The translations under genes and the position numbers were made by a program. Shown piece after piece: positions 4,316 to 39,635 of a DNA stretch of 64,000 nt. How positions within the stretch are numbered: the stretch's first letter is position 1; each line of letters begins with the position of its first letter. Origin of the DNA: a virus; the IMG/VR virus record IMGVR_UViG_3300026473_000477, positions 1 through 64,000 of that record; one strand, 5' to 3'. The notes beneath the pieces are model-generated. The model ran no database searches. It was not told the DNA's origin and saw only the letters and a list, made by a program, of their open reading frames with translations.

Positions 4316-4336
4316 GTTATCTCCTCGGTTAATTAG

Positions 4337-4365
4337 ATTATACTAAAAATAACTCATTGAGTCAA
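4337..4365 (-). promoter_or_regulatory. sigma70-type early promoter
   Basis: TTGACT-17-TATAAT with A/T-rich upstream element. Confidence 0.85.
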
Positions 4366-4407
4366 CAAAATAAATAAATATTTAATAAGTTCGGATATTA
4401 TTAATGA

Positions 4408-4429
4408 ATTATCGCTATAATATAGTATA
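4408..4429 (+). promoter_or_regulatory. Putative late promoter motif copy 1 (in front of ncRNA candidate)
   Basis: ATTATCGCTATAATATAGTATA, matches motif found before virion genes. Confidence 0.7.
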
Positions 4430-4860
4430 AGCTTTGGGACCGTGAAATAGAGGTTAAGCAAGCCGACCTAGTCCAGCGTTCTGGGAAGCCAGTGGACACT
4501 TGAGAAACGTCAACGAGTAGACTCAAGCGGAAAGCCCTAAGAAGTGACTAGATGAATGCGACTAGTTGCCATGTTTAGAGATAGCTAAACGACCATAAGC
4601 CTTGAGGGAAATTAGTTGAGTACCTTCCAAGGAATAAAGTAAACATAGAGACTTCAGTCCCTATAGGTACTTTATTGTCTAAAATGAAGGGTTACTGAGG
4701 ACAATTCAAAAGAAAGACATAGGTTACTGTTAAGATCGTTCCAATATAAATGTTTCTTAGCATATAGTTTCCTTTTTGATATCCAAGGTTAATTGGATGA
4801 TAGCAGAGATTAGTGAGAAAAGCAATGGAAGAGAAAGAAAACAACAACTTATCTCACTTA
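4428..4860 (+). ncRNA. Structured non-coding RNA candidate 1 (unknown family); 3' end uncertain
   Basis: No ORF, locally higher GC, run of hairpins (GTCCA/TGGAC, CTTGAG/CTCAAG, GTTTAG/CTAAAC, AATAAAGTA/TACTTTATT, ATCCAA/TTGGAT); shares GACCGTGAAATAGAG and CGGAARGC with 36891-37130. Confidence 0.7.
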
Positions 4861-4976
4861 CCTTAATCTTCCCCTTCCAACAATCAACTACTTACTGGCA
4901 TAATTCTTGCATCCAACTAATGATATACTGCACCTAGTCAAGCCACTCTCCCCAATTGGAAAAAAACTAATAGTAG

Positions 4977-5005
4977 TTGACAGTCATCCTGCACCATGTT
5001 ATAAT
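4977..5005 (+). promoter_or_regulatory. sigma70 consensus promoter
   Basis: TTGACA-17-TATAAT with TGn. Confidence 0.85.
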
Positions 5006-5033
5006 AACAGTATAACTAAACAAGGGGGACAGA

Positions 5034-5147
5034 ATGATAGTAAAAACTCAACACTCAACGTGGCCCGGTTCAGAAAACGACAAAATGATTTATATTTCTC
5101 ATGAGGTGAGAGGTGGTTATTATTATATCACTTGGAAGCTTAAATAG
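5034..5147 (+). CDS. Small hypothetical protein (37 aa), not in ORF track
   Basis: MIVKTQHSTWPGSENDKMIYISHEVRGGYYYITWKLK after perfect promoter and SD AAGGGGG. Confidence 0.55.
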   Translation: MIVKTQHSTWPGSENDKMIYISHEVRGGYYYITWKLK

Positions 5148-5311
5148 TCATCAGGCGAGGATAACAATGACTAGAGAGGAAATGGCTAACAATCTTTTCC
5201 CAATGTGATAAGATACTATCAGAGGGGATGATAACAGTCAGCACTACTGGTAAACTTGTAGAATGTTACCTACCAGTGAGAGCTACTGGCAAGCCTGTAG
5301 ACGACTAGGAC

Positions 5312-5341
5312 TTGACAGGTAGCGGTACAGTGTGATATAAT
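5312..5341 (+). promoter_or_regulatory. sigma70-like promoter reading into G-rich tract
   Basis: TTGACA-18-TATAAT with TGn. Confidence 0.65.
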
Positions 5342-5350
5342 GATTGTAAT

Positions 5351-5403
5351 GGGTTGGAGGGTTGATAGGGGGTAGGGTACTTTTGAAAGAGAATGGGAGG
5401 GGG
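5351..5403 (+). other. G-rich tract matching the G-quadruplex pattern
   Basis: GGG-TTGGA-GGG-TTGATA-GGGGG-TA-GGG followed by GGGAGGGGG. Confidence 0.6.
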
Positions 5404-5437
5404 AATATGCCAGAATATATATTTTCCATTCTACCAA

Positions 5438-5683
5438 TCAAGTGTCATACAACAACCTATAAATCACATCATATTTTCTTCTATGATTCTCATACTCTAG
5501 CTTAACTTCATCAACTATATTATTGGATAATGTAACATCGTTTGACAGACTAAGTAATTCCATGTAAATAGTAAAGTACCTATTTTCTAGGCTAAATTTC
5601 TCCATACCTTCCTTATTCCTACTAAGGACAAAGTATTCAAATATTTGAATTTTAAGCTCATCTATTCTATTATTTGAACTCAA
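5438..5683 (-). CDS. Hypothetical protein
   Basis: ORF overlapping upstream gene. Confidence 0.55.
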   Translation of the reverse strand: MSSNNRIDELKIQIFEYFVLSRNKEGMEKFSLENRYFTIYMELLSLSNDVTLSNNIVDEVKLEYENHRRKYDVIYRLLYDT

Positions 5684-8291: not shown

Positions 8292-8645
8292 ATGAAAAAG
8301 TTCTTAGACTGTGTTCCAGTTCTATCTCTATTTTTATTTCTATTGTTATGCGCTTTTAATCCAGACAGTATTGGATCAGCTGTTGGACTAGTGGCAAGCT
8401 CTCTTCTATTTGCTTATCAGCAATGGTTATTTAAGCAAGAGTCTCCAGATTATTCTACTATTATTTCACAATTAGAATCAAAAGTCAATCAATTAGAATC
8501 TGACCATAAAAAAGACATTGGAAACTTGTCGCTAGAGGTCAATAAAGAGATTACCCAGCTTAGGGATTCTTTAAGCGGAGTTAACTTATCATCAACCAAA
8601 GTTACCACTATCGGTACTAAAGAAAAAAGTAGAATAACTTTTTAA
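8292..8645 (+). CDS. Membrane protein, two TM helices plus coiled coil
   Basis: Hydrophobic N-half; ATG 8292 preferred because of SD GGAG. Confidence 0.7.
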   Translation: MKKFLDCVPVLSLFLFLLLCAFNPDSIGSAVGLVASSLLFAYQQWLFKQESPDYSTIISQLESKVNQLESDHKKDIGNLSLEVNKEITQLRDSLSGVNLSSTKVTTIGTKEKSRITF

Positions 8646-11229: not shown

Positions 11230-11245
11230 GGAAAATAAATCCTGT

Positions 11246-11267
11246 AATATCGCTATTATATAGTATA
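11246..11267 (+). promoter_or_regulatory. Putative late promoter motif copy 4
   Basis: AATATCGCTATTATATAGTATA. Confidence 0.75.
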
Positions 11268-17457: not shown

Positions 17458-17488
17458 CAAAGCCTCCGTTCAGGGGGCTTTGTTTTTT
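17458..17488 (+). terminator. Intrinsic terminator between capsid gene and convergent RNA ligase gene
   Basis: CAAAGCCTCC-GTTCA-GGGGGCTTTG-TTTTTT. Confidence 0.85.
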
Positions 17489-18536
17489 AGATTAATAAAT
17501 TTCCAGTTGGTCTAATCGCCTTCATTATTAGTCCATCTAGTCCTTTTTGTAGAAAAAAAGAAAATACATAAATATTATAAGGATGATCATTTTCTTTAAG
17601 GTACAATCCTAAGTTCTTTCTATCTTCAGGAAGTAGATCGAATTGTTTTTTATTTAATGCTTCGTATGATATTTTTTTACAATACATTCCAATATTGTAT
17701 TCTAATTCTTCGTAGTTTTTCTCTAATTTTTTAGCTATTTCTTTATAGGGATCTGAAAACTCTTCAGGAATACTAGCCATGAGCTTAGAGCATACCTTTC
17801 CGTCTTTCATAGATTCCCACAAAGTTAATGGAGATAATCCTGATTTAATTCTGTGCATTTTAACATACTCATCACCTTTAAACTTCGCTCTTGTTCCATC
17901 TTCAAACTTTACAACATAGCCTTCTTCGTTAAATGGTAGTTCTTTAAGTTTTTTCTGTAATTGTCCCAAGTCTGAAAAATCATAAGTTTTAGCTTCTGAA
18001 TCAAATGCATGGAGAGAATCCTCTGCTCCATTTTTTGTATCAAATGATGTCAAAAATACAAGTTTTTCTTCTCCTTTATAGTCAACAACAATGCGATTTT
18101 CTGGATAAATAATCTCAACTAAATATGTTTTATTTATTGAAAGATTTCCCATAAAGGGTTCAAGAAGCTCTAGTCCTTTTTTAGCTTGATCTGATTCAAA
18201 ACTTCCACGAGTATTTACTCTCCATTCTCCATCATAGAAATATATAATCCCTAATGAACCATCCATTTTTTCGGCTACAGTAAATCTTTGGGACATTAAT
18301 TCAGTCTGTCTTTCGGGACTAAGCTCTGAAAAATTAAAGAATTTAGGAAAAGCACGAGCTACGATATTGCCTGTGGATAATTCATATACAGAGCCTCTAG
18401 CATTTAGTGTAACTTCGTCCCAAGCTTTCTCCCATTGGCACTTTTCAGTGTAATCAAATAACACAAGCTTTCCACAAGTAGAAATTTTTTTAGAGATAAG
18501 TCCCTGTTCCACATATTTATCAAATCTACTTAACAT
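17487..18536 (-). CDS. rnl1: T4 Rnl1-like RNA ligase
   Basis: NARG, AFPKFFN, motif I EKMDGSLG, TRGSF, EIIYPENRIVVDY, EEGYVV, KFKG. Confidence 0.92.
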   Translation of the reverse strand: MLSRFDKYVEQGLISKKISTCGKLVLFDYTEKCQWEKAWDEVTLNARGSVYELSTGNIVARAFPKFFNFSELSPERQTELMSQRFTVAEKMDGSLGIIYFYDGEWRVNTRGSFESDQAKKGLELLEPFMGNLSINKTYLVEIIYPENRIVVDYKGEEKLVFLTSFDTKNGAEDSLHAFDSEAKTYDFSDLGQLQKKLKELPFNEEGYVVKFEDGTRAKFKGDEYVKMHRIKSGLSPLTLWESMKDGKVCSKLMASIPEEFSDPYKEIAKKLEKNYEELEYNIGMYCKKISYEALNKKQFDLLPEDRKNLGLYLKENDHPYNIYVFSFFLQKGLDGLIMKAIRPTGNLLI

Positions 18537-19506
18537 TTAGCTCTCTTTTGTAAAACTTAAGCAATATCTCATCTAAGTATATACGTTCCAATCTTTCTGG
18601 TAAAGTACTTTCTTTACACAATCTTTCAAGTTCCTCAAGTCCAGCTTCAATTTCTGGCTCTAACTCTTTGTAATCAATCTCTCCTGCTTTAATCTTTTTT
18701 AAACGAATAAGATTTTCACCAATATGCGGTAAAGTAATAGTTCCAGTTGAAAGTAGTTCTTGACCTTGATATAAGCATCTCATGGCATGGGACAAAGCTT
18801 TCCAATCTATACCGTTATTATGTTTAGCTTCTCTTGCTCTTTGTCCATATTTTTTATACTCATCATTTAGACACTTAGTAATAACTTGGAAAGGAGTGTC
18901 TTGATCAAACCTTTTACCAAGAACATTAATTGCTGGCTTAGAAGAAGTAGAAGTAGGATGTAAAGTAGTAAAGTTTACATACTTAAAGTCTCTAAAAGCT
19001 ACGACAAGTTCGTTCCACGAATGCTTTAGTTTCGCTCCTTTAAAATCATGAGAATGTTCTAATTCTTTGAGAATCTTAACTACATTATTAAGCTCTCCCA
19101 TTCTAGAACCTTTAATTCCGTATTTGTTGGCTTGCTGTCTAGCATATCCTATCATTGCGTTAATTTTCTTACTGACGAGTGTTTCTCTGATTGATAAAAT
19201 ATCATCCCATTCTTTTGACTTTTCAATAATAAATTGATCTGGAGTAAACAATAACTCTAACGCTGCTGTATCTCCGTTTTCTATCATATTTAAGAATTTA
19301 CGAAGACTATATAGCTCAGTGTCTACATCGTCTTTTGTATTCTTAGAATAATCATTTCCTGTAGAATATCTAATAGTATCTGAATAATTACCTAAAATAA
19401 TATCATCATTACTAGGAATAAAGACCCCTTTGTAGTCCATATCAGAGCTAGGAGTGTTCGTTCCAAATAAATGAGATCCTGCAATGGATTTAATTAAAAT
19501 TTTCAT
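18526..19506 (-). CDS. Pol-beta superfamily nucleotidyltransferase (RlaP / T4 NrdC.11-like)
   Basis: GSHLFGTNTPSSDMDYKG, GYARQQA, DWKALSHAMR. Confidence 0.88.
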   Translation of the reverse strand: MKILIKSIAGSHLFGTNTPSSDMDYKGVFIPSNDDIILGNYSDTIRYSTGNDYSKNTKDDVDTELYSLRKFLNMIENGDTAALELLFTPDQFIIEKSKEWDDILSIRETLVSKKINAMIGYARQQANKYGIKGSRMGELNNVVKILKELEHSHDFKGAKLKHSWNELVVAFRDFKYVNFTTLHPTSTSSKPAINVLGKRFDQDTPFQVITKCLNDEYKKYGQRAREAKHNNGIDWKALSHAMRCLYQGQELLSTGTITLPHIGENLIRLKKIKAGEIDYKELEPEIEAGLEELERLCKESTLPERLERIYLDEILLKFYKRELNVK

Positions 19507-19509
19507 ATT

Positions 19510-19671
19510 CTATAATCCAATTTCAGCACAATCGAAGTTATATATAAATACAGTTTTTTCTTGTTTAGATAACATTGTTTGCACTGGGCTTCTATAAAGA
19601 AGAATATTATGAAATCCTCCAGTGAAGTAAGGTTTTATATCTAAAAATGCAAAACTTCCAATAAAACTCAT
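19510..19671 (-). CDS. Small hypothetical protein (53 aa), not in ORF track
   Basis: MSFIGSFAFLDIKPYFTGG... fills the gap between PNK and nucleotidyltransferase. Confidence 0.45.
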   Translation of the reverse strand: MSFIGSFAFLDIKPYFTGGFHNILLYRSPVQTMLSKQEKTVFIYNFDCAEIGL

Positions 19672-19672
19672 A

Positions 19673-20608
19673 TTAAAAATTTCCAGGTCTGACTTGAAAA
19701 CAGTTTAATCCTAACTCTCTCCATTTTATCACAACTTGATCTCGATCGTCAAGTACATACTTAACATTATAAAAAGGTTCAATTTCGTATCTATATAACA
19801 TAGCTTTAGTAATATCGTCAGACTTATAGTTAATCTTAGGGCGCATCTTTAAAGCTGTATATGGGATATTATGCTTGGCTAACCATTCTTCAGTTTCCTT
19901 TCTATAATCTTCTGGTCTTCCAGAACACAAAACTACTTCAGTCCCGGCTTCAAATTCCATTTCTAAAATCCCTCGAACATCTTCATATACTGAATCATTT
20001 ATACATTCCCTAAAGAACTTACCCCAATCTTTCTTACCTTCACCTTTTACATGATTAAGTCTATGATCGAGATTAGCAAGCGTACCATCTATGTCTACCA
20101 TTATTGCAGACTTTGATGAAAATTTATCAGAGATTCTAATTACTTCGCCCTCTTCTTCGGTAACTTCCTCATATCTAGAGAAGAAAGTATTTAATGCTGA
20201 GGTAGCAGAATTAGATTTGTGTGTATCTATAGTATCTTTAAAGTGTTTAAGAGAATACTCATCCCCTGGAACTGGTCTACCGAGTATCCCATTAATTGTA
20301 GGATGACCTTCTCTATCCATACAACGATCATAACAAATCTGTCTAGGAACTACAAACTCGACAAAGTTTACATCATATCCATTTTTAATCGCTTCAAGTC
20401 TGTATTTATCTCGTTGTTGTTTATCAAAGTTCATTCTATCGACTACGATATCTGAACCAGCATTCATGCTGGATTTAAATAAATCTAAATGACCTTGTTT
20501 ACCTTGATCATCTTGAGATATTCTAATATATCCAGAATTTTCAAGTGATTTAGCGTATGTAGACTTTCCTGATCCTGGTGGTCCAATCAATATAGTTAGT
20601 TTATTCAT
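19673..20608 (-). CDS. pseT: Polynucleotide 5'-kinase / 3'-phosphatase (T4 PseT-like)
   Basis: P-loop GPPGSGKST; HAD DIDGTL, SGR, DDR. Confidence 0.92.
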   Translation of the reverse strand: MNKLTILIGPPGSGKSTYAKSLENSGYIRISQDDQGKQGHLDLFKSSMNAGSDIVVDRMNFDKQQRDKYRLEAIKNGYDVNFVEFVVPRQICYDRCMDREGHPTINGILGRPVPGDEYSLKHFKDTIDTHKSNSATSALNTFFSRYEEVTEEEGEVIRISDKFSSKSAIMVDIDGTLANLDHRLNHVKGEGKKDWGKFFRECINDSVYEDVRGILEMEFEAGTEVVLCSGRPEDYRKETEEWLAKHNIPYTALKMRPKINYKSDDITKAMLYRYEIEPFYNVKYVLDDRDQVVIKWRELGLNCFQVRPGNF

Positions 20609-20613
20609 GTTTC

Positions 20614-20889
20614 CTACTTTTTTAATTTCTCAAATCTTTCTTTATATTCCTTAAACTCATTAGCATCACGCTCTTTCTCAAATTGGAACTTCTCCAGTCT
20701 AGCTATATATTTCCTACAATGATGAATTAAACTCTGCATGAAATCTTTAAAGTATTCATGAGTATAGTTATTATACTTTTCGATAATTTTAACATACCTT
20801 TTAAGATTTTTCAAGTCACTAGGTTGTTTTCCAGACTTTCGATCCTTATTGTACCTAACTTCATTTTCATCTTTAATGTCATATCCCAT
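20614..20889 (-). CDS. Hypothetical protein
   Basis: TAATG-coupled ORF in the same operon. Confidence 0.65.
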   Translation of the reverse strand: MGYDIKDENEVRYNKDRKSGKQPSDLKNLKRYVKIIEKYNNYTHEYFKDFMQSLIHHCRKYIARLEKFQFEKERDANEFKEYKERFEKLKK

Positions 20890-21434
20890 TAACTACCTAC
20901 TTTCCAAGTTTCTCGGTTATATTTATAATTACCTAATATTTTATTTGAATTAAAACAAAGTCCTTTATCCTTAAACTGAATCCTATATTGGGGATAAATA
21001 TATAAATTACCGTCTTTTCCCATAAGCGCATGAGTCTGCTTCCAATGCTCGGAATTTCGACTTAAATCGTTATTGCCAATATAATCGATTGTAAATAAAT
21101 ATTCAGCTTCAATAAGCTTTTTGCTGGAAGTCTTAACAACGCAACTCATATATCTTAATGTATCAAAACAAATAACCTGAATTTCTGATCCAATGTTATC
21201 CCACATTAAAACTTCTTCCAGTGGCTTAATTTCAGCCTTTTCATTAAAAGCTATAGCATTGACTGGTAAACCTGTAAATAACGCACCATCATCAGTTAAA
21301 ACGCTAATTTGAATGGCTTGATTCTGCAATGCTCGACAAGAAATAAGATGAGCATAAGTATAGCCTTTTTTCTTGTCCCAATAAAGAAACTCATTCCTTA
21401 CCCATACTTGAATTGGAGGAAGATTATCGTTCAC
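20889..21434 (-). CDS. Conserved phage protein of unknown function
   Basis: NLPPIQVWVRNEFLY...GALFTGLP...YLFTID pattern; GTGA coupling. Confidence 0.7.
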   Translation of the reverse strand: MNDNLPPIQVWVRNEFLYWDKKKGYTYAHLISCRALQNQAIQISVLTDDGALFTGLPVNAIAFNEKAEIKPLEEVLMWDNIGSEIQVICFDTLRYMSCVVKTSSKKLIEAEYLFTIDYIGNNDLSRNSEHWKQTHALMGKDGNLYIYPQYRIQFKDKGLCFNSNKILGNYKYNRETWKVGS

Positions 21435-21556
21435 TTTTTTCCTTTTTCTAGCTTTTTTTGCACATATTTTATTAAATTATAGCCTAAAATAGCTGGAATT
21501 GCCCCAGGAATTATTAATATTGCTACTATTTGGACTATATCATTCTTTTTTTTCAT
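21431..21556 (-). CDS. Small single-TM protein (41 aa), not in ORF track
   Basis: MKKKNDIVQIVAILIIPGAIPAILGYNLIKYVQKKLEKGKK. Confidence 0.5.
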   Translation of the reverse strand: MKKKNDIVQIVAILIIPGAIPAILGYNLIKYVQKKLEKGKK

Positions 21557-21564
21557 AAGTTATT

Positions 21565-21646
21565 AAAAAAACTAGGCATAACCTGAAGAGGGATTGGCTA
21601 TGCCTAGCAAGGATTAAGCTAAGTATAGATTCCTATAAGTAGCTGT
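21565..21646 (-). ncRNA. ~80-nt leader/small RNA: hairpin, linker, intrinsic terminator
   Basis: After perfect promoter; AGCTA/TAGCT plus TATAG/CTATA hairpin, linker TAATCCTTG, CTAGGCATAGCC/GGTTATGCCTAG stem then T7. Confidence 0.7.
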
Positions 21647-21652
21647 AATTGC

Positions 21653-21681
21653 ATTATATATTACATATTGTAATTTGTCAA
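21653..21681 (-). promoter_or_regulatory. sigma70 consensus promoter for leader RNA / RNA-repair operon
   Basis: TTGACA-17-TATAAT. Confidence 0.88.
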
Positions 21682-21716
21682 TAAATAAATTAATAAAATT
21701 GAAAAATAATCTCTGT

Positions 21717-21738
21717 AATATCGCTATTATATAATATA
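21717..21738 (+). promoter_or_regulatory. Putative late promoter motif copy 6
   Basis: AATATCGCTATTATATAATATA. Confidence 0.75.
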
Positions 21739-22242: not shown

Positions 22243-25200
22243 ATGATTTCTAAAAAGAGATTTAAAAGAGGAATTGTAATTAAGCCAGATACCGAAGTCT
22301 TGGAAGGGATTAATGGTGAGCTTAAAGTAGATTCAGCTGATAGTAAAATTAAAACTACTCTTGGCGGAACTCCTCATGAAGTTATAACTAATGATCAAAT
22401 GCAGACATTGACTAATAAATCAATTGATGCTGATAATAATACTATTTCCAATTTAGAGGTAGATAACCTTAAGGCTGGAGTTCTTGACACAGACCTTAAC
22501 ATGGTATCTCCAATGGATGATACTATTCCTTCGGCTAAGGCTACAAAAGCTTACGTTGACGCTGCTGCTGCAACTGCTGATGCTAACCTTCAGGCGCACA
22601 TAAACGATGCTATCGACGCTCACGATGCCTCTGCTATCTCTAACATACCTTTTGGAACAATCTCTTCTACAGACGTACAATCTGCTATTAATGAGCTAGA
22701 TGGCGACATTCAAGGTCACATTAATGACATGATTGATGCTCATGATGCTTCAGCTATTTCTGTTATTCCAACTGGAAATCTTTTATCAGATAACGTACAA
22801 GATGCTTTAGTTGAACTTCAACTTGAAAATGATACACAAGTTGTTGGTCCAGCAATGGCTACCGATAATGCTATTGCTAGATTTGATGGGACTACTGGCA
22901 AACTTATTCAGGACTCTAATGTAACAGTTAGCGATCTTGGGGACGTTGTTACTCCAGCTTCAGTTACAGCTGATACAATTACTGGAACAAGTTCAGTAAC
23001 CTCGCCAATAGTCAATGCTAATACTAAATTAAATACTCCTGAAGTGTCGTCTGCTGGTTCTCTTACTTTAAGCCCAGCTACTCATACTTCAAATTCAAAT
23101 AAACAAATTAAAGATGTTGCTGATCCAACTGATCCTCAAGATGCTGCTACAAAAGCTTATGTTGATGGAGCTTCTGCCAATGTTGAAATTCTTGACGAGG
23201 GAGTTTCGATTACTGGAACTGTAGAATCAATTAACTTTGTTGGAGCTGGAGTTACAGCTACAGCAGTTGGTAATGATGTTACAGTAAATATTCCGGGTGG
23301 AGGAGGAGGTGGAGGTACTGGTGTTGGAGATCTTGATACTATCTTTACCGATGACTTTGAAACTTCAGTTTTAGCTGATTACATCCAAGTCGGACTTGCA
23401 ATTGTAACAGCAAATGCTTTACATGATAACTTCTCTGCTAGACTCATTCATCAAACAGCTACTCCAACCCCAGGATTAACTCAATACTTTGAGCGTACAA
23501 TTCCTTTAGATGATGCCTTTCAAAAGAAGGTTGTAGAGTTTGCAGTTAAGCTAAAATCTACTGCCTCTAGTGGTAACATTACAGTATCAGTTAAAGATCA
23601 ACTCGGAGCTACTTTATACTCAGGAGTTCTTGAATCTAACTCAAGACAGATTGCTAACCTAACTACGACTACTGGTTCTGCTACTGTTGGAGGATTTACT
23701 AACGCTAACATCATGACTGTTGAGGTTAATCAATTAGTCACTGGTACAGGTATTCCAACTGGTACTTATATCACGGCAGTCAATACTGGGGCTTTGACAG
23801 TAACATTATCAGCTAACGCTACTGCGACTGGTACAACTACACTTTCATTTTCATCTGAGTCATTAGAGCAGAAATTTACTTTCACTACTCTTGAGAATAC
23901 TACTTCTCTCGTTTATCGCATCAATGCCTTAGTTCAAAATGGATTACCAGAATCATACTTTGATGATGTTGTAATTAAACTGGCTGATGCTTATGAGAAT
24001 AATGTTGCGTTAATTGAAGAGGAGGATACTGCGATTGTTGCCGCTGGTAATAACGGAGAAGTAATCACGGTAGACGTTACTAATATCCCATTTAACTTAG
24101 TTTCAAGTAAGGGATCGGATATTTTATCTGGTGTCGGTACATATACAGCACTTGAGAGTGGTCTTTATAACTTTACTGGATCAGTATTTTTTACTGCTGC
24201 AGCTACAAGAGCTATTAGAATTTATGTAAATGGAGTAGTTTTAAGAACTGTTTCCGACTCTCCTAACGCTGCACAATTTAAGTTTGATGTTTCTAATATT
24301 AACCTCATGGCTGGTGATATTGTATCATTCAGGGCTAACGCTACTGGTGGAACTTTATCAAACAGCACGACACTTCACTGGATTAATATTTCAAAACAAG
24401 GCTCACTTAAACAAATCGTTACTAACGGAGAGTCTAAAATCTCCATTCCAACATCAGAGCTAAGATTTGAAGGTGCTTCAACTAGAGGTACAACAAATAC
24501 GCAAGTAGTTAGATTTGACAACGTAACAAAGGTTCGTGGCGGAGATTTGACTTACACGAATACTGCGACTAATGGTACAGAAATTACGTTCCTAAAATCG
24601 GGGCTTGTAAACATTCAAACTCAGTACATTACAGTTGCAGGACAAAATGTCTATATCGCCAAGAATGCTCTAACTCAAGCGGCAACAAATGGAGAAACTG
24701 CCTTAGCAATTAACGTAAACGGATCAACTGGTAACTTCACTGAAGCTATCTATTCTGGATTTATTAAGGCAGGAGATGTTGTTAGAGTTCTCGCAGGGGT
24801 TAACCCAACGGCTGATATTAGAAACTCTCTCAATATCACATTCCAAGCTCAAGAAATTCAAGTATCAGTATCTAATACTTTACCTCAATTCTCTGACTCA
24901 GATACAAGCATTAGATTGGATACAGCTAATGGTTACGGATCGGTTGGAACTAAGATTAGAAGGTTTTTAAATCTTAGAGAGAATTTTGATAAAGATGTAA
25001 CTTATATACCAAGTGCTATTAATGGTGACTCATTCTTAATTCTTGAGGATGGGATTTATAACATCAGTTATACCGACTATCAAAACGCTGTAAGGGTTGG
25101 TATTACGTTAAACTCTAACAATATATCAACAAACGTATCTACTTTAGCCCTTAATCCGAACAATGAGGTTTTAGCTCTTGTTGCCACAGGGGTTATTGAT

Positions 25201-26727
25201 ATTGAATGTGCATCATGGCAAGGAAGACTTAGTAAGGGCGATGTAATTCGTGCGCATACCGACGGAGCTGCGGCTACGGATAATGATGCCGTTAAATTCA
25301 CAATCTCTAAAGTCGGCAAGCCTAACGTAGAAGCTGTTGATGTCACTCCATTTATTGATATTCCTCAAGAGAAAAGACAGACTGCGGTTTATACAGCTTT
25401 AACGTACACTACAGCTACATTCCCAGTTAAGATTAGCTCACTTGCCACTTCTACAACTGGGTCTTCAATCTTTACAGTAGATAACTCTGGTGCTTCATCT
25501 AGGATAGTTGCTCTTAAGGATTGCACTTTAGATATTCATTATAACTCACTAATCTCTGCGTCTGGTGCGAGCTTAATCGTAAGAAAGAATGGTATTGCGG
25601 TTAATATTTTGGCTGGAACATCCACGCATAACACTGGACAAGGCGATACTGTTTCTGGTGAGTTGTTTTTAGCGACAGGTGAATATATTGAAATTGGATC
25701 AAGCGCTGGAACTGTTTCAAGTGCTGGTGCTAACGGATCATTAGTATTATCCGCCAAAGCTAACTCATCTCAAATTCTATCTGAGGTTGAGACATTCAGT
25801 ACTGATACTGCATCATTAACTTACGCCTCAAGTGCTTTATATACATTAGCTACTTTACCTAACTCTCCAATTGGCACATATATCACATTTACGTATGCAG
25901 CTAATACGAATACAAGAACTCAGACAACTACTAGACCTACTCAGACTGATGCTGACATGAATGCAAATGGTTTCTTGATTACAGCAAGAGCTTATAATGC
26001 TGCTTCTGTGGCGGCTACTCCAAGTACGTTTGTTGTGAACGTAGGCAAAGGGTACAGTGGTCAGCTTTTAGAGATATTTAAAAATGCTGGGCAACTTCTA
26101 AAGGGTAGCTTTGATTATTACGTTCTTGGAACAAATGGGTATGGAGCATTAGTTAAAGACTATAACCCTACGACTGGTCTATTATTTATTGATGCTGGTG
26201 CGGTTGATGCTACAGTAACAAACGTTCATTTATTTACGTTTGAAGATGTTTCTCAAGCATCTACAGGTTACGTTACATTCACAGCATCTAAAAACCCTGC
26301 ACTTACAGGAGTATTTGTTCCAGAGGTAATCTCTGCATCTTACTTCTTATCAGCTAACCAATCAGTAACAGCTAACACCCAAATTAACTTTGATAGCAAA
26401 GAGTTTGATACTCACAATGCTGTAACAACAGGGGTTGGAGTTTGGAAGTTTACTGCACCAGAGAGTGGATTTTATTCACTTCAAGGAGTTACTGACCAGG
26501 TTACTGCTGGAATTTTTCTTGTTGCTTATAAAAATGGAGTGGCTCACAAGTCGGTAAGTTATGATTCAACTGGAAACTTGGCTGGTATAGTTAGTGCAGT
26601 AATTAAGTTAAACAAGGGTGAGTTTATTGATGTTAGACCAGCCGTAACTGCTACATTTAATGGTGCTGGACTTCAAGCAGGTAACGCTGGTGTCACTCAT
26701 ATTTCAATCACAAGGGTAGGTAAATAA
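22243..26727 (+). CDS. Long tail fibre / adhesin with C1q-like domains
   Basis: HINDAIDAHDASAIS repeats, DPTDPQDAATKAYVD fibre motif, Gly linker, C-terminal FDSKEFDT...FTAPESGFY...IKLNKGEFI. Confidence 0.8.
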   Translation: MISKKRFKRGIVIKPDTEVLEGINGELKVDSADSKIKTTLGGTPHEVITNDQMQTLTNKSIDADNNTISNLEVDNLKAGVLDTDLNMVSPMDDTIPSAKATKAYVDAAAATADANLQAHINDAIDAHDASAISNIPFGTISSTDVQSAINELDGDIQGHINDMIDAHDASAISVIPTGNLLSDNVQDALVELQLENDTQVVGPAMATDNAIARFDGTTGKLIQDSNVTVSDLGDVVTPASVTADTITGTSSVTSPIVNANTKLNTPEVSSAGSLTLSPATHTSNSNKQIKDVADPTDPQDAATKAYVDGASANVEILDEGVSITGTVESINFVGAGVTATAVGNDVTVNIPGGGGGGGTGVGDLDTIFTDDFETSVLADYIQVGLAIVTANALHDNFSARLIHQTATPTPGLTQYFERTIPLDDAFQKKVVEFAVKLKSTASSGNITVSVKDQLGATLYSGVLESNSRQIANLTTTTGSATVGGFTNANIMTVEVNQLVTGTGIPTGTYITAVNTGALTVTLSANATATGTTTLSFSSESLEQKFTFTTLENTTSLVYRINALVQNGLPESYFDDVVIKLADAYENNVALIEEEDTAIVAAGNNGEVITVDVTNIPFNLVSSKGSDILSGVGTYTALESGLYNFTGSVFFTAAATRAIRIYVNGVVLRTVSDSPNAAQFKFDVSNINLMAGDIVSFRANATGGTLSNSTTLHWINISKQGSLKQIVTNGESKISIPTSELRFEGASTRGTTNTQVVRFDNVTKVRGGDLTYTNTATNGTEITFLKSGLVNIQTQYITVAGQNVYIAKNALTQAATNGETALAINVNGSTGNFTEAIYSGFIKAGDVVRVLAGVNPTADIRNSLNITFQAQEIQVSVSNTLPQFSDSDTSIRLDTANGYGSVGTKIRRFLNLRENFDKDVTYIPSAINGDSFLILEDGIYNISYTDYQNAVRVGITLNSNNISTNVSTLALNPNNEVLALVATGVIDIECASWQGRLSKGDVIRAHTDGAAATDNDAVKFTISKVGKPNVEAVDVTPFIDIPQEKRQTAVYTALTYTTATFPVKISSLATSTTGSSIFTVDNSGASSRIVALKDCTLDIHYNSLISASGASLIVRKNGIAVNILAGTSTHNTGQGDTVSGELFLATGEYIEIGSSAGTVSSAGANGSLVLSAKANSSQILSEVETFSTDTASLTYASSALYTLATLPNSPIGTYITFTYAANTNTRTQTTTRPTQTDADMNANGFLITARAYNAASVAATPSTFVVNVGKGYSGQLLEIFKNAGQLLKGSFDYYVLGTNGYGALVKDYNPTTGLLFIDAGAVDATVTNVHLFTFEDVSQASTGYVTFTASKNPALTGVFVPEVISASYFLSANQSVTANTQINFDSKEFDTHNAVTTGVGVWKFTAPESGFYSLQGVTDQVTAGIFLVAYKNGVAHKSVSYDSTGNLAGIVSAVIKLNKGEFIDVRPAVTATFNGAGLQAGNAGVTHISITRVGK

Positions 26728-35100: not shown

Positions 35101-36447
35101 ACGTCTTTCTTAGTTGACGAATACATTCAGATTTCCAATATTCAGGATATTGAAGTTGGAGATACTCTTGTCCAACAACAGACATTAACTATAAATAAAT
35201 ATAATAGACTTTTAAAAAAGCTTGACAGAGATGAGTCTCAATATTTATCAGATAATTACTTTTCTGAGCTTAAAGCATCCAGAGGAAGTAATATGGCTGA
35301 AAGGCTTACACTACTGGCAGAAAAGCTTAACTTCGATTTAAATCCAGTTCCAACTGGTGCAAGCATTATCTGGAACAGTAAAACAGGTTACGTTAATGGT
35401 TTAAATGGAGGACTATCAACTGATGCTAACAGAGCTTCAGGTCCTCTTTATGATAATGTATTTGCTTCTGGATTTGGAGAAACTGGAGATTATTCTTTTG
35501 ACTTCTCTTTCCAAGGATTAAATACAGATGATGCCTTTGGAGTGTCAAATGATGGCTTCGCTGGATTTGATGGAATTATCCTAGCATCAGGTGGTACAGT
35601 GGCAGGAGTTCACATTAACGGACTGCTACAACCATTTACAGGATTGACTATTGTTGGTGTCAATACATTTAATATTGCTAGAGTATCTGGAACTGTTACG
35701 ATGACTTTGAATGGTAATGTTATTTTTACTGGAGCTGGTTCAGCTGGAATGATTAAATATCCTACAGCAAACCTTAGACCGGGATCACAGATAACGATGT
35801 CATCATCAGCAACAGCTGGCTCGAGCTTTAGTTTCACAATTCCTACTCCAAGTGGAATAAATAATCCAGCTGCTCACATGATTGATTTTAATAATATCAT
35901 TGAAGCTTTAAATGACCCAAACTCTGGGACTGGTTATAAAGACTATACTGAGCTTACATCTTACATTCCATTTGAAGGTAATATTGTTGGAATAGTTGGT
36001 AATCAGATTGCTATTCAATTGAATTATACTGACAACTTTATTGAGGGAGATTTCCAAGTTTATAAAGCAATCAGAGTGAATGTAGAATATGCTCCTCAAC
36101 ATTTTGGAACTCCAGAAGTCTTAAAACAGATTAATCAAGGTACTTTAATATTTGATCAGAGTAATTTTTATGGTGGAAATATTGCTTATGCTACTGACAG
36201 AGCGCAAGATTACATTGGAGTAAATTTCAATGGTCAAGGTCCAGGTTACTTTGGTGGATATAATTGGTCAGATGTTACTTGGGGAGGAGAGGGAACTGAA
36301 TATACAGTAAGAACTCTTATTCCAGTGGATAAGCAAAGATGTCGATATATTCATGTAAGATTTCAACATGCTTTTGCTTTAGATAAATTTAAATTATTGG
36401 GAATTTCTCTTGAACCAAGAAATAATTCTCCAAGAGCTTATAGGTAA
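32146..36447 (+). CDS. Tail hub / nozzle (P22 gp10 or T7 gp12-like beta-propeller) with large insertions
   Basis: GALTEADNVV..RRG N-terminus, NRLYFSK..PEA, AYRYNTFTRAWTRW. Confidence 0.7.
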   Translation: MSSLTSSRGLITNSSELTRADGALTEADNVVIDADNVIEQRRGFGEYGQLTLDNTYVKQILAYKNSIFRHYSSTLEYDSDGNGNFVAFDGDYSEVVSGLRIKSAELNGNFFFTTSDGIKKISALSNSEFTSNSGYITTAGGVKATSLISKIMPDDSGFLPAQSKVSYRLVWGTKDVNNVLVLGSPSSRSIVSNTSKDINIGESFLVSVINYTLITDGSFFTFDTPNNKYAPYFITTAMTPIPADAQIVNRQLVPIDIQGLTTNAQVAARIGTSLAALSDISVEVSGNDVTVSNNDGGDVLDASQGNVAIGALTVSTVFDGQTSAGIAANVELSFQIPSRVNTNYFYQLYRTAFITADASQLLSDIDPGDEHQLVYEAPITDADVTNGFITVTDITPDSFRAGNAFLYTNPVTGGGIISANEAPPIAQDIALFKNSMFFANTKELQRKQFNLLSVSDFVSGMSKLYVGDSNIFRSYTFVGTSEITDFTVQPRSTTTANSYIIINSANNERTYKVWFDTGIVPMEPIVPNTISIRVPLALYPDTNAGSIQAFIDAFEGITDFFVEDLMVMTGDQVRVSCTNNGPVTDPVNSMPSSGWTFTVFQQGTGENLATGQILLSGLDSVGQAVEETARSIERVINADPMSPVNAYYLSGLDDLPGILLLEARSLENSAFYLAISDAILSTKFNPNLPVNNTITATTIMGNLFTTSGNHGYLVGNQIYLNDGVMYKGVYKIATVPAPNQFTVTGLMITVDQTMLTGVSYLTTVGSDNSVNPNRLYFSKILQPEAVPLVNFIDIGPKDKAIRRILALRDSLVVLKDDGVYIVSGPSAPNFSVRLVDSSAIITAPDTAQNLNNLIYMLSTQGVVTASETGVSVISRNIENRITEVTNNKYNYKTIGFGVTYESDRSYIIWLPTKVADVTATQAYRYNTFTRAWTRWDKPATCGLTNPADDKIYIGSGDNRKFVLKERKNFERQDYADRDFTRSFLNTSFLVDEYIQISNIQDIEVGDTLVQQQTLTINKYNRLLKKLDRDESQYLSDNYFSELKASRGSNMAERLTLLAEKLNFDLNPVPTGASIIWNSKTGYVNGLNGGLSTDANRASGPLYDNVFASGFGETGDYSFDFSFQGLNTDDAFGVSNDGFAGFDGIILASGGTVAGVHINGLLQPFTGLTIVGVNTFNIARVSGTVTMTLNGNVIFTGAGSAGMIKYPTANLRPGSQITMSSSATAGSSFSFTIPTPSGINNPAAHMIDFNNIIEALNDPNSGTGYKDYTELTSYIPFEGNIVGIVGNQIAIQLNYTDNFIEGDFQVYKAIRVNVEYAPQHFGTPEVLKQINQGTLIFDQSNFYGGNIAYATDRAQDYIGVNFNGQGPGYFGGYNWSDVTWGGEGTEYTVRTLIPVDKQRCRYIHVRFQHAFALDKFKLLGISLEPRNNSPRAYR

Positions 36448-36486
36448 TTATTTAGTTTATATTCTAAAATAAACCATTAGGGATTT

Positions 36487-36894
36487 ATGCCAAAATTAAG
36501 TGATATTAGAAGAATTGTTCCAGAAGACTTTAGCCAAGAAGATCAAGATACTGCTCAGAGAATAGCTGGCAGTTATAATGAATTTGCTGATGAGCTTTAT
36601 GGAATAATTAATGGTAACTTAGATTTTGAAAACCTTTCCAGAAGAAAGATTCAAGTTGATTTAAATATTGGAAACAATGGATCTATTATTGGAACAAATG
36701 TTGTAATTACCAATCTTTCTTTTGTTTCTGGTATTAATGTTATTAAATTTGATAATCTTACTAATAATACAATCAGAGCAACTTCAGCTCCAGCCGTTTC
36801 ATTTACATATAACGGCTCAGGAAGATTTACAATTAATTACGTTATTGGACTTCCTACTGGAAAATGGAGACTGATATTAGAGGTTATACAGTAA
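36487..36894 (+). CDS. Small virion/tail protein
   Basis: Follows tail hub, same strand. Confidence 0.55.
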   Translation: MPKLSDIRRIVPEDFSQEDQDTAQRIAGSYNEFADELYGIINGNLDFENLSRRKIQVDLNIGNNGSIIGTNVVITNLSFVSGINVIKFDNLTNNTIRATSAPAVSFTYNGSGRFTINYVIGLPTGKWRLILEVIQ

Positions 36895-37130
36895 CTTATT
36901 GGCGTAGTTTTATCTATGTAGAAAGGAAGTCTACCTAGTAAAACCAATAACTTACTATGTTTGAGTGTTCAGTTAGAGGGTTTGCCAATTTAAGGCTGAA
37001 TGTCTTCATTTCCTATGGAAGCCTTCCGCTGGGTACTTAATCCTTGCTCGACACCCAGAAGTGCGTTTGTTTATCGGGACACCTGTATCGCTTTCGCTCT
37101 ATTTCACGGTCTTCGATAGGAAACTGCTTT
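36891..37130 (-). ncRNA. Structured non-coding RNA candidate 2, paralogue of 4428-4860
   Basis: Own promoter; TTTCCTAT/ATAGGAAA and GAAG/CTTC closing stem, GACCGTGAAATAGAG core, GC-GAAA-GC, CTGGGT/ACCCAG stem, long 3' hairpin; G-U pairs favour the - strand. Confidence 0.75.
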
Positions 37131-37135
37131 CTAAT

Positions 37136-37164
37136 AGTTTATCATAGGTGATTTACTTTGGCAA
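37136..37164 (-). promoter_or_regulatory. sigma70-type promoter for ncRNA 2
   Basis: TTGCCA-17-TAAACT with TGn. Confidence 0.65.
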
Positions 37165-37240
37165 GACTTAATATTAATGTAATTACAATGAGTTATAATT
37201 ATTTTTCAAAATATTTAATAATTTAGCCAAAAAAGCGTGT

Positions 37241-37261
37241 AATATCGCTATTATATGTATA
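37241..37261 (+). promoter_or_regulatory. Putative late promoter motif copy 9
   Basis: AATATCGCTATTATATGTATA. Confidence 0.75.
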
Positions 37262-37274
37262 GGAGTTTTATTTA

Positions 37275-39635
37275 ATGGCATTTTTAAAAGATGATGAAGA
37301 TTCTAATCAGACTCTTGGATTAAATAAACCAAATGATAATACCAAGCAAGATCAGGCTAATGCAGCTGATCAAGTTCAATTATCTACTCCTTCAGCTGTT
37401 TCATCTCAAGATGCTAACGCTAATGCGACTGGTCCACAAGCTATTCAAGCTAATCAACCAGCAAATCCTAGAGCCTCATCTGGAACATTTACAAATATCA
37501 AACAATACATTGATGCCAATAAAGGTAACAGAATCGCTTCTGCTACTTCTCAAAGGCTTCAAACAGCTACTAATCAAGCTCAACGTGGCGTATCTGATGC
37601 TCAGAAACAATTCTCCCAAAGAGTCGACACTGGAACTCTTGCCAATAGAGGTCAAGCAATTGCAGACATTAACGCAGCTGTAAATAAGGCTAAGAATGTT
37701 ACTGCTCTGCCAGCTGTTCAACCTCCGGTTCAAGCTCAACCATTATCAAATGAAGTCACTACTCCAGCTCCAACTCAACCAGTAGTTCAAGCTGCTAAAC
37801 AAGCTCCTCAATACATTGACGATGTTACTAAAAGCAGATTTGCTGATATTATTAATGCAAGATATACTGGTCCAGAATCTTTAAGACAAGCTGGATTATT
37901 TGACAAGGCTAGTGGACAAGTTTCACAAGCTCAAGCTTTACTTAATAAAACTGGTAATGCTCAAAACAGAACAAGTTTACTTAGAGATGTCTTTGCTCAA
38001 AATAGAGACTATAATCGTGGACAACAAGGACTTGATGCGTTACTTTTAAACACAGATAAGTCTGGAGTTCAGAGAATACAGCAACAAGGAAAGCAAGCTG
38101 GTGATTTACAAAGATCACTTGAGTCTGCCGACACTGAAGCTATAAACCTTGCCACTAACAGAGCCAATGAAGTTTCCAATATTAGAAAACAAGCCAGAGA
38201 TATATTTACTGGTGAGCAGAAAGGTTTAGAAACAGGAATAGAGAAGAGAATTGATGATTTGATTGTAACTCCAGCTAAGGATGCTTCAGGTAATCTTATT
38301 CCAAAATTGGATGCTACTGGTAAGCCGATGGTTGACGCTAGTGGTAATCCTGTATATCAAACTGAATGGGATAGAATCCCTGAATACTTTAAAGATGTAA
38401 TTAGAAATAAAGAAGCTAATAACAAAGCTTTAATTGATAAGAATGTTCAAGACATCACAGCTAATGAAATCAATCCAATAATTAATAGTGATGCTTATAA
38501 ATCAGCTTTGGCTGCTAAAAATAAGTTAGATCAAGTAACTCGACAGCTTCAAGATGCTGAGACTAACTTAGCTTTTTCGGGTGGATTTACAAGTCCATTT
38601 GATAGTACGATTTCAAGTCCAGGTCTATCTCAACAAGAGATTGATAACTTGAATAAACAAGTAGCCCAACTTAAACAACAACAGGCTGCTTTACAAGCTC
38701 CAGCTCAACAATTGGCAGGATTTCAAAACCAAATCAACGCAGCAAATGCTAAGATTGCTCAAGAGAAGCAGAGAAGTCTTAAACAGCTTAACCTTACTCC
38801 AGAAGAAATGGCTATATTAGGTGTTTCTAGTGGCGAAGGTTTATATAACCTTGGACAAGATGCTATCGCTCAGGCTAAAGCTGAAAGAGATAGACTAGTC
38901 ACAAGAGATGAACAGGCTAGACTCTTTGCGTTATCACAATTGGCAGGATTAGATCTTGACAAAGCACTCAAATCTGACGTATTATATAATGATTTGGATA
39001 AAGCTGGAACTCAGACATTAAACAGTTCTTTAGATACTCAGAAAATTAGAGATGTCTTAAATGCTGAAGAACAAGCTTTTAGAGAAATGGCTCAAGGTGC
39101 TAATATAACAGGTTTTGGTTCTAAGAAGAATAAGACTTCAGGTAAAAGGTATTATGCTGAACAATCTGCAAATCTTGGAGATATCTTAAAGAAAGCTGGT
39201 TATGACTTTAGTAAACCCCTTTCTACTCAAGTTGGAAATGCTGATATTATAAATGCATCTAACACAAGTAGAGATCAAGAAGGTGGATTGAAAGGGATAG
39301 CTGGTGCGATTGAAGCCAATAAAGAATTAGTTGATCCTAGTGGTAGGTCTGTTTTAGAAACTGCTATTAATTTAGGGCTTCCTCTTTCTGGACTTACAGG
39401 AGCGTTAGGGTTAGGTTCTATTGGTTCTGCTGTTACAGGTGCTTTAGGATTTGGGGGAGCTAATTCAAGAGCTTCCAAAGCTGATGCAAAACAATTTGCA
39501 ATTCAAGACTTGCAGAATAAAGTACAAAATGCAATAGCACAATCTGGATTTGAAAACAGAGTAAATACGACAAATGATAGTTTAGCAAGAGCAAGAACAG
39601 AAGCATTGAAAGAATTACTAAAAAGGCAAGGATAA
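37275..39635 (+). CDS. Putative DNA ejection / internal virion protein
   Basis: Q/A-rich helical protein with Gly-rich hydrophobic segment, podovirus synteny. Confidence 0.6.
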   Translation: MAFLKDDEDSNQTLGLNKPNDNTKQDQANAADQVQLSTPSAVSSQDANANATGPQAIQANQPANPRASSGTFTNIKQYIDANKGNRIASATSQRLQTATNQAQRGVSDAQKQFSQRVDTGTLANRGQAIADINAAVNKAKNVTALPAVQPPVQAQPLSNEVTTPAPTQPVVQAAKQAPQYIDDVTKSRFADIINARYTGPESLRQAGLFDKASGQVSQAQALLNKTGNAQNRTSLLRDVFAQNRDYNRGQQGLDALLLNTDKSGVQRIQQQGKQAGDLQRSLESADTEAINLATNRANEVSNIRKQARDIFTGEQKGLETGIEKRIDDLIVTPAKDASGNLIPKLDATGKPMVDASGNPVYQTEWDRIPEYFKDVIRNKEANNKALIDKNVQDITANEINPIINSDAYKSALAAKNKLDQVTRQLQDAETNLAFSGGFTSPFDSTISSPGLSQQEIDNLNKQVAQLKQQQAALQAPAQQLAGFQNQINAANAKIAQEKQRSLKQLNLTPEEMAILGVSSGEGLYNLGQDAIAQAKAERDRLVTRDEQARLFALSQLAGLDLDKALKSDVLYNDLDKAGTQTLNSSLDTQKIRDVLNAEEQAFREMAQGANITGFGSKKNKTSGKRYYAEQSANLGDILKKAGYDFSKPLSTQVGNADIINASNTSRDQEGGLKGIAGAIEANKELVDPSGRSVLETAINLGLPLSGLTGALGLGSIGSAVTGALGFGGANSRASKADAKQFAIQDLQNKVQNAIAQSGFENRVNTTNDSLARARTEALKELLKRQG

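Follow-up and report, generated by a model that had tools for sequence, protein, structure and literature searches.

A conserved structured RNA family of uncultured freshwater phages and the complementarity of one member's loop to the leader of an RNA-repair operon

We analysed the first 64 kb (64,000 nucleotides, hereafter the window) of the 79.6-kb IMG/VR virus record IMGVR_UViG_3300026473_000477, which is about 95% complete, and within it a non-coding RNA that we call ncRNA 2. The portal of the P22/SU10 type, the large terminase of the T4 type, the family-B DNA polymerase and the ribonucleotide reductase encoded in the window indicate a podovirus-like phage. A sequencing-run search located this phage in riverine metagenomes. 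No cultured relative was found among GenBank phages by blastn with ncRNA 2, its paralogue ncRNA 1 and one orthologue, or by tblastn with a neighbouring protein of 786 amino acids (aa), and the best identity of the portal protein to GenBank phages was only 18-27%. ncRNA 2 lies in a gap of 381 nt between two plus-strand open reading frames (ORFs) for virion proteins, 36487-36894 (135 aa) and 37275-39635 (786 aa); homologues of the 135-aa neighbour are present at 60-81% identity in a protein collection (P0122-P0130). The initial annotation had described a promoter-bearing, ORF-poor element on the minus strand of this gap. This description was confirmed, as a TTGCCA-17-TAAACT promoter is present at 37164-37136 and no ORF of at least 40 aa was found inside the gap. 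A search with ARAGORN revealed neither tRNA nor tmRNA in the window.

Homologues were collected by scanning IMG/VR with a 15-mer common to ncRNA 1 and ncRNA 2, followed by nhmmer, and a metagenome scan was added. Orthologues of ncRNA 2 were detected on 10 IMG/VR contigs and about 12 metagenome contigs, all of freshwater phages. Every orthologue is flanked by homologues of the 135-aa and 786-aa virion proteins, whose identity to the window's proteins is only 40-55%, and is encoded on the strand opposite to them. Analysis of the orthologue alignment with RNAalifold produced a structure of 67 pairs, 25 of which carry compensatory changes. In this structure 96.3% of the alignment cells were paired, and the 25 pairs changed on both sides compare with 8.1 +/- 1.8 in shuffled alignments (0 of 500 reached the real value) and with 1-8 in controls in which the alignment was slid. 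Conserved G-U pairs, which would become A-C mismatches if read on the other strand, identify the minus strand as the RNA strand. Thermodynamic z-scores were not significant alone (-1.35 for ncRNA 2 and -1.37 for its core), so that the support for the structure comes from covariation.

The promoters of the orthologues (TTGCCA/TTGACA-17-TATATT/TATACT) are located at an equal distance from the first hairpin. At the other end, the last conserved hairpin of ncRNA 2 stops at 36903, 9 nt short of the stop codon of the 135-aa gene, indicating that the RNA fills the gap without coding overlap. No clear intrinsic terminator was found behind it. The one RNA run searched contained a few short contigs, located in structural genes and none of them covering ncRNA 2 or the leader described below, and is too scant to speak on expression. 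On this comparative evidence ncRNA 2 is a genuine structured RNA, about 230 nt long, its ends being placed by prediction. It has its own promoter, opposite in strand to the virion genes, from which it would be transcribed by the host sigma-70 RNA polymerase. An uncultured lineage of freshwater podovirus-like phages of about 80 kb has retained an RNA at this very site, and ncRNA 2 is its orthologue.

The P5 hairpin of ncRNA 2 was of particular interest, since the initial annotation had proposed that its loop displays a 13-mer complementary to a distant leader RNA. The 13-mer was indeed found inside an 18-nt loop (37052-37035) on a 6-bp stem that covaries in relatives; at pair 110/135, for instance, 4 of 10 sequences have G-C in place of A-U. 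According to prediction the loop is accessible and costs 1.8 kcal/mol to open. Whereas the P5 stem and the other helices covary, the P5 loop is near-invariant in 15 distinct orthologue sequences, reading GUCG-(C/A/U)AAA(A/G)CCA(U/C)-UAAGU; the loop type of the present phage is written AGCAAGGAU. This near-invariance does not support the further proposal of exchangeable guide loops. In the 3' domain, a small hairpin of ncRNA 2 is flipped from GG..CC to CC..GG relative to the orthologues.

The relatives also differ in gene content. A homologue of the kinase-phosphatase Pnkp, which is encoded in the operon behind the complementary leader (see below), was absent from the records of ten relatives, three of which are 95-100% complete. 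In these three near-complete relatives no complement of more than 10 nt to their own P5 loop was found, the longest being of 9-10 nt, which is the chance level. The RNA and its conserved loop are thus kept in relatives without the repair operon, indicating a conserved job that is independent of this operon. A pseudoknot between the orthologue P5 loop (AAAACCA) and a downstream UGGUUUU, although possible in most orthologues, was rejected as unsupported. The element UGGUUUUAC covaries instead with its partner in the 3' hairpin (L277/L279: UUUCGC/GCGAAG), is uncompensated in L276 and is unchanged in ncRNA 2 although the loop of the latter differs.

ncRNA 1 and ncRNA 2 have in common the motifs GACCGTGAAATAGAG and AGCGGAA(A/G)G, which bears out the common core fold noted in the initial annotation. 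The core is a four-way junction with the invariant strands ACCGUGAAAUAG ... AGCGGAAGG. Its layout is P1, a bulged A, CCG(U), GAAAUAG, three variable hairpins, A, (G)CGG, AAGG and P1', in which CCG(U) and (G)CGG form P2, a helix of 3-4 bp. The loop of the last hairpin is framed by 5' CG(A) and 3' (A/U)AAG (GUCG...UAAGU in ncRNA 2), and the 3' part of the P5 loop (AUUAAG/UAAG) recurs in distant members, indicating that about 5 of the 13 bases that would pair with the leader (UUAAG) are fixed for family reasons. Looser pattern scans added more distant members (L020, L121/L272, L132/L263, L135, L176, L186/L264/L268, L193, L274 and L281). In a family alignment of 15 sequences from at least 8 clades, with up to five pair types at P1 positions, the covariation score of P1 and of the last hairpin (P5) was 0.415 as against 0.155 in shuffled alignments (0 of 500). 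About 20 nucleotides around the multi-helix junction, mostly unpaired and purine-rich, are invariant from A+T-rich to G+C-rich contigs, and a sigma-70-like promoter lies directly upstream of P1 in each member.

The genomic settings of the more distant members vary. Members of the L264/L268/L176 clade share 42-54% identity with the window in terminase and portal, and their RNA lies ahead of the packaging operon and on its strand. These RNAs (L264:11528-11662, minus strand; L268:330-445, plus strand; L176:9026-9137, plus strand) are driven by TTGACA-17-TATATT and are located 105-223 nt upstream of a gene for a 280-aa protein, which is followed by terminase and portal; a conserved block, ATTATTCAAATA...CATAAATTTAACAACTATATAT, separates the RNA from the 280-aa ORF. 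In L193 and L135 the RNA is placed ahead of an ERF recombinase operon, and in L272 ahead of a PDDEXK nuclease gene, with a hairpin and a U run after the core. A cmscan search with the 4,227 models of Rfam 15 gave no match at gathering score for the whole window or for nine related loci. When the region 36400-37700 was searched at E values up to 10, only chance-level matches to unrelated eukaryotic families were obtained. Among 185,579 genomes of prokaryote species the strict family pattern had no match; a looser pattern had 38 matches, as against about 34 expected by chance, all of them in coding-like sequence and without P1 pairing.

ncRNA 1 belongs to the same family. Diverged copies of the ncRNA 1 type were found in the relatives G010 (C1, about 79520-79800, plus strand) and G004 (C1, about 8350-8540, plus strand), which indicates that both paralogues are old. 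The junction motifs of these two copies are altered (ACCGUGAAAAAA...AGCGAAACG; GCGUUAAAAAG...CGCAAGGGG), the loop of their last hairpin, CGUGGGAUUAUG, is the same in both, and the G004 copy appears to have swapped P2 from CCG/CGG to GCG/CGC. Loops of the ncRNA 1 type are thus alike in G004 and G010 and different only in the phage of the window, which fits simple phylogenetic distance. We conclude that these RNAs almost certainly constitute a phage RNA family that is supported by covariation, is represented by two paralogues in each genome and is absent from Rfam. The idea of a phage RNA family with a conserved core, already put forward in the initial annotation, is upheld by the orthologues, the covariation and the more distant members.

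The motif ahead of ncRNA 1 matches 16 of the first 19 positions of TGTAATATCGCTATTATAT. This 19-mer occurs exactly ahead of plus-strand structural genes at 11243-11261, 21714-21732 and 37238-37256, with near matches at 4404-4423, 6905, 15730 and 30522. With its -10-like TATTAT/TATAAT, its fixed upstream ATCGC and no -35 element, it probably represents a class of middle or late phage promoters. The presence of such a motif ahead of ncRNA 1 suggests that the two paralogues probably differ in timing. Around ncRNA 1 the sequence is ORF-poor over 1.1 kb (4316-5440). Two more perfect TTGACA-17/18-TATAAT promoters on the plus strand follow it (4977-5005 and 5312-5341) and lead into G-rich sequence without convincing ORFs, so that their transcripts may be further non-coding RNAs; the fold z-score of 5012-5310 is unremarkable (-0.28). 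Kissing between the loops of ncRNA 1 and ncRNA 2 was considered and rejected, as no more than 4-5 bp could form.

The leader to which the P5 loop is complementary is transcribed from a minus-strand promoter that matches the consensus at 12/12 positions. It contains a first hairpin, an 8-nt linker and a terminator that ends at 21565, ahead of the first ORF, which begins at 21556. An alternative antiterminator helix is predicted, and the complementarity is centred on its 9-nt loop, UUAAUCCUU. In a nascent RNA of 52 nt the corresponding fold is suboptimal at -10.1 kcal/mol and within 1.4 kcal/mol of the minimum free energy (-11.5 kcal/mol), and the antiterminator helix is predicted to be nearly isoenergetic with hairpin 1 and to form a mutually exclusive alternative fold. 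In these predicted folds the leader has the classical three-helix layout of a regulated attenuator. Since Pnkp, RlaP and an Rnl1-type RNA ligase are encoded behind the leader, RNA-repair operon is a fair name for this transcription unit. Its first ORF, without Shine-Dalgarno sequence, specifies a Lys-flanked, hydrophobic peptide of 41 aa, and in the sequence GTGA its stop codon is shared in part with the GTG start codon of the 181-aa gene, suggesting translational coupling.

A scan of IMG/VR with an 18-mer revealed no homologue of the leader. In a riverine strain that differs by about 1-2% (X2), the leader is unchanged between 21549 and 21691. Pnkp homologues in IMG/VR are only 27-53% identical, and the RNA family motif was absent from the five Pnkp-bearing phage records of 80-90 kb that were checked (G011-G015). 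Related Pnkp modules are found at 55-71% identity on other contigs of 77-92 kb (P0009, P0014, P0028-P0030, P0033); in L327, L337 and L340, IMG/VR phages of about 80-85 kb without the RNA family, the identity is 40-47%. Judged from this distribution, phages of this size class seem to exchange the repair module.

A pattern search found AGCAAGGATTAAG exactly twice in the window, on the minus strand at 37036-37048 and on the plus strand at 21606-21618, as the initial annotation had stated. The single complementary site is thus 15.4 kb from ncRNA 2. The annotation had also placed the complement on the linker and the first bases of the terminator stem, with a G-U pair extending it to 14. This proved correct: besides the linker, the complement takes in 2 nt of hairpin 1 and, on the other side, 3 nt of the terminator arm, and the 13 bp are extended by the G-U pair to 14, followed by one mismatch and three more pairs into the terminator arm (17/18). 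An origin of the complementarity by inverted duplication was rejected, as the similarity stops at about 17 nt. Opening of the linker is predicted to cost 0.1-0.3 kcal/mol, and the net energy of pairing with a nascent leader of 52-62 nt is about -11 kcal/mol. Once the terminator has formed, the net energy becomes -5.8 (13 nt) or +1.6 kcal/mol (18 nt). Pairing would therefore be favourable with the nascent leader and weak after the terminator has folded, suggesting that any action would be co-transcriptional. Blocking 3 nt of the terminator arm reduced the computed stability of the terminator from -20.0 to -14.8 kcal/mol and detached it from the U tract; blocking 7 nt left -3.9 kcal/mol.

We estimated how often such a match arises by chance. 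A shuffled 18-nt P5 loop found a 13-nt match in the 79.6-kb genome in 1.7% of trials, in agreement with the 1-2% given for this loop in the initial annotation; corrected for all loops that could have been considered, the chance is 2-12%. The upper figure corresponds to all eight long loops of both RNAs and the whole genome, and for the whole 245-nt RNA 1.2 matches of 13 nt are expected. Pair counts over the ungapped 18 nt were ordinary, since 20% of the shuffled loops reached 17 pairs including G-U and 5.6% reached 15 Watson-Crick pairs, so that only the contiguity of the match is unusual. The match has a probability of roughly p = 0.005-0.1, depending on the credit given to the landing site, which is suggestive and not decisive.

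Table 1. Positions of ncRNA 2, its paralogue, the complementary leader and the operon behind the leader. Coordinates are those of the window.
Feature	Coordinates	Strand	Remarks
ncRNA 2 promoter	37136-37164	-	TTGCCA-17-TAAACT; TG upstream of -10; same layout in orthologues
ncRNA 2 transcript (predicted)	36900-37129	-	5' end inferred about 7 nt past -10; last conserved hairpin to 36903
P1 5' arm and invariant junction strand	37099-37123	-	P1 5' arm 37111-37123; ACCGUGAAAUAG 37099-37110
P5 hairpin	37029-37058	-	Stem CUGGGU/ACCCAG; 18-nt loop GUCGAGCAAGGAUUAAGU 37035-37052
13-nt stretch of P5 loop	37036-37048	-	AGCAAGGAUUAAG; complement of leader
Invariant CGGAAGG and P1 3' arm	37009-37028	-	CGGAAGG: P2 3' strand and internal loop
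ncRNA 2 3' domain	36903-37008	-	Conserved ACAUUCAG, small hairpin, long terminal hairpin
ncRNA 1 (paralogue)	4427-4720	+	Core motif from 4439; late-promoter-like motif ahead
Leader promoter	21653-21681	-	TTGACA-17-TATAAT
Leader/attenuator RNA	21565-21646	-	Hairpin 1 21617-21644; linker UAAUCCUU 21609-21616
Complement of P5-loop stretch	21606-21618	-	CUUAAUCCUUGCU; exact
Alternative antiterminator helix	21598-21628	-	CUAUACUUAGC/GCUAGGCAUAG; in silico, -9.0 kcal/mol
Leader terminator	21565-21608	-	13-bp stem-loop 21571-21608; U tract 21565-21570
Operon behind leader	17487-21556	-	
41-aa hydrophobic peptide	21431-21556	-	
181-aa protein	20889-21434	-	
91-aa protein	20614-20889	-	
Pnkp kinase-phosphatase	19673-20608	-	
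RlaP	18526-19506	-	
Rnl1-type RNA ligase	17487-18536	-	

Our favoured explanation, in which we place about even confidence, is that ncRNA 2 is a conserved structured RNA whose function lies in its core, and that the 13-nt match to the attenuator is somewhat more likely, about twice as likely, to be due to chance than to be a contact in use. The conserved function would reside in the invariant four-way-junction core and in the frame of the P5 loop (5' GUCG, 3' UAAGU). The core would bind a partner that hosts of widely differing G+C content have in common, such as a host or phage protein, RNA polymerase or a small ligand, and the contact between loop and attenuator, if used, would be a lineage-specific addition. 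That the conserved function of the family sits in the invariant junction and needs no repair operon is well supported by the comparison of relatives. Several observations nevertheless weigh against this explanation. The duplex between loop and leader is the strongest in the genome (-25.3 kcal/mol, the next one having -19.5, and the best ones of the relatives -16 to -20). The 13-mer is the only one of ncRNA 2 with a partner elsewhere, the motif common to the paralogues aside; it is located in the only long accessible loop, and its target is the linker of an attenuator. When all eight loops were compared with sense-strand 5' regions (-300 to +20 of gene starts), the chance of such a match was 2.3%. 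Finally, the core-binding part of the mechanism is unspecific as regards the partner.

A trans-acting RNA antiterminator, the model of the initial annotation in a narrow form, we regard as possible, if doubtful, from the predicted folds and energies. Both promoters, which are sigma-70 consensus-like, would fire early in infection; the P5 loop would bind the linker of the nascent leader and invade the first 3-7 nt of the terminator 5' arm or, in a variant, kiss the loop of the alternative antiterminator hairpin. In either case the terminator could not form beside the U tract, letting the polymerase read into the peptide-Pnkp-RlaP-ligase operon. Once the lineage had gained the operon, the leader would have adapted to an accessible loop that was already present. 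The exact and extended complement, the low chance estimates for the P5 loop alone and for 5' regions, the ease of opening of both partners, the favourable energy with the nascent leader, the weakening of the terminator when its arm is blocked and the three-helix leader, in which the complementary stretch forms the loop of the antiterminator helix, are all consistent with this mechanism. A P5 loop with a conserved frame and a lineage-specific centre is likewise expected of a displayed recognition loop. However, the match was seen in one genome only, and the orthologues keep the RNA and its conserved loop without the operon and without a phage-encoded complement. Nor was a target found for ncRNA 1 or, within the available flanks, for other clades. 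About 5 of the 13 paired bases are conserved in the family for other reasons, and the chance estimate rises once it is corrected for the other loops. A 13-bp helix within a closed 18-nt loop would in addition be topologically strained, so that perhaps only about 7-9 bp form. A more elaborate form, in which the invariant junction binds a universally conserved partner (for example RNA polymerase or an RNA chaperone) while the lineage-specific P5 centre within the GUCG...UAAGU frame selects the nascent leader, so that a reprogrammable antiterminator acting in trans switches on the RNA-repair operon, seems to us rather unlikely. Slightly less likely still is a general family of reprogrammable guides: the initial annotation had supposed that copy 1 addresses another target, whereas the corresponding loop of ncRNA 1 has no outstanding partner in the phage genome (best -18.2 kcal/mol), and the last-hairpin loops of other clades have no standout target within their loci beyond an 11-mer (L193) and a 10-mer (L020).

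The pairing could also work in reverse, the terminated leader of about 80 nt being an abundant small RNA whose linker masks the P5 loop and tunes its normal contact. A 12/12 promoter followed directly by a terminator would give such a product, and the linker is single-stranded and the loop accessible. This seems improbable, as a leader that has folded completely pairs weakly outside the 8-nt linker (-6.9 kcal/mol for the duplex, in addition to the low net energy for 13 nt given above), the match is again confined to a single genome, and the hypothesis presupposes a normal partner of the loop. Alternatively, the core may be a new class of ligand-sensing aptamer or self-processing ribozyme rather than a protein-binding scaffold, ncRNA 1 and ncRNA 2 being stand-alone copies in phages. 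This agrees with the invariant purine-rich junction in contigs of very different G+C content and with the clades in which promoter, core and hairpin or U run precede packaging or recombination genes in the manner of a riboswitch leader, that is, the packaging operon, the ERF recombinase operon and the PDDEXK nuclease gene described above. However, ncRNA 2, L135 and L193 matched no riboswitch or self-cleaving ribozyme model of Rfam 15 at E values up to 10, no gene follows the ncRNA 2 orthologues on their own strand, and there is no candidate ligand or cleavage site; we thus consider it unlikely. Finally, the element could act in cis, whether as a transcriptional insulator between two late units, as an element of a plus-strand mRNA, or by forming the structured 5' end of a transcript that runs antisense across the virion genes. 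Its position on the opposite strand within the late module, back-to-back with the late-promoter-like motif at 37238-37256, and the lack of a clear terminator after it would fit such a role. We hold this to be very improbable, given that the minus strand is fixed by the conserved G-U pairs, that the conserved structure ends before the neighbouring gene with nothing conserved antisense to coding sequence, and that family members occur in quite different genomic settings.

A separate observation concerns the gene at 22243-26727 (1494 aa), which is mosaic. In a strain from another riverine sample that differs by about 1-2%, four of its segments (23306-23434, 24023-24400, 24495-24828 and 25071-25297) are swapped for diverged sequence of similar length, while the flanks are nearly identical. 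This pattern is typical of host-recognition or surface proteins.

Among known systems, the CI RNA of phage P4 pairs with the sites seqA and seqC and causes premature termination (PMC4825925). Like P4 CI and the C4 RNAs of P1 and P7, ncRNA 2 is a structured phage RNA, and base pairing with a leader would steer the termination of a phage operon. Unlike P4 CI, which is processed from the transcript that it controls, has two target sites and promotes termination, ncRNA 2 has its own promoter some 15 kb away and a single site, and would prevent termination; a regulator processed from the leader of its own operon is thus not what is found here. The C4/CI family model of Rfam had no match in the window at gathering score or in 36400-37700 at E values up to 10, in line with the view of the initial annotation that the sequences do not resemble P4 CI or P1 C4. 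On the leader side, the order of promoter, terminator and ORF, the alternative fold obtained in silico and the predicted accessibility of a loop complementary to the decision region are those expected of an attenuator controlled by an antisense RNA. In plasmid countertranscript attenuators (pT181 RNAI, pIP501 RNAIII, pCF10 Anti-Q), the loop of a small RNA likewise meets a leader that is still being transcribed and selects one of its alternative folds ahead of an intrinsic terminator. These RNAs are cis-encoded, fully complementary and induce termination, whereas ncRNA 2 is trans-encoded, its complementarity is limited to 13-17 nt and read-through is predicted.

In T-box leaders, a loop of tRNA pairs with the leader and stabilises the antiterminator over the terminator. 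The likeness to ncRNA 2 lies in a large folded RNA with a conserved scaffold and a short loop for pairing with a leader; the difference is that the scaffold is a phage RNA, with no T-box sequence, specifier loop or tRNA-like features. If the contact between loop and leader is used, a trans-encoded RNA would prevent intrinsic termination by invading the terminator arm, and an RNA regulator would be tied to the expression of an RNA-repair (anti-anticodon-nuclease) module. Prevention of a terminator by an RNA in trans is well known for tRNA at T-boxes and, to our knowledge, hardly documented for phage RNAs.

The put RNAs of phage HK022, two stem-loops of about 70 nt whose conserved unpaired bases bind RNA polymerase, act in cis on their own polymerase. 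By description only, they resemble the present family as promoter-proximal structured phage RNAs with conserved unpaired bases and a universally conserved partner. Binding of this kind could explain both the family-wide invariance across hosts and the members directly behind the promoters of long operons, although ncRNA 2, unlike put, has no downstream genes on its strand. RNA families that combine covariation with about 20 invariant junction nucleotides are rare and have repeatedly proved to be riboswitches, ribozymes or polymerase-binding elements. The family described here is phage-specific, with two paralogues per genome that are probably timed differently, and has no Rfam entry. It resembles the orphan RNAs GOLLD, ROOL and HEARO of Rfam in being supported by covariation, borne by phages and folded into a complex multi-helix structure, and is much smaller, the core measuring about 85-115 nt and the whole RNA about 230-300 nt.

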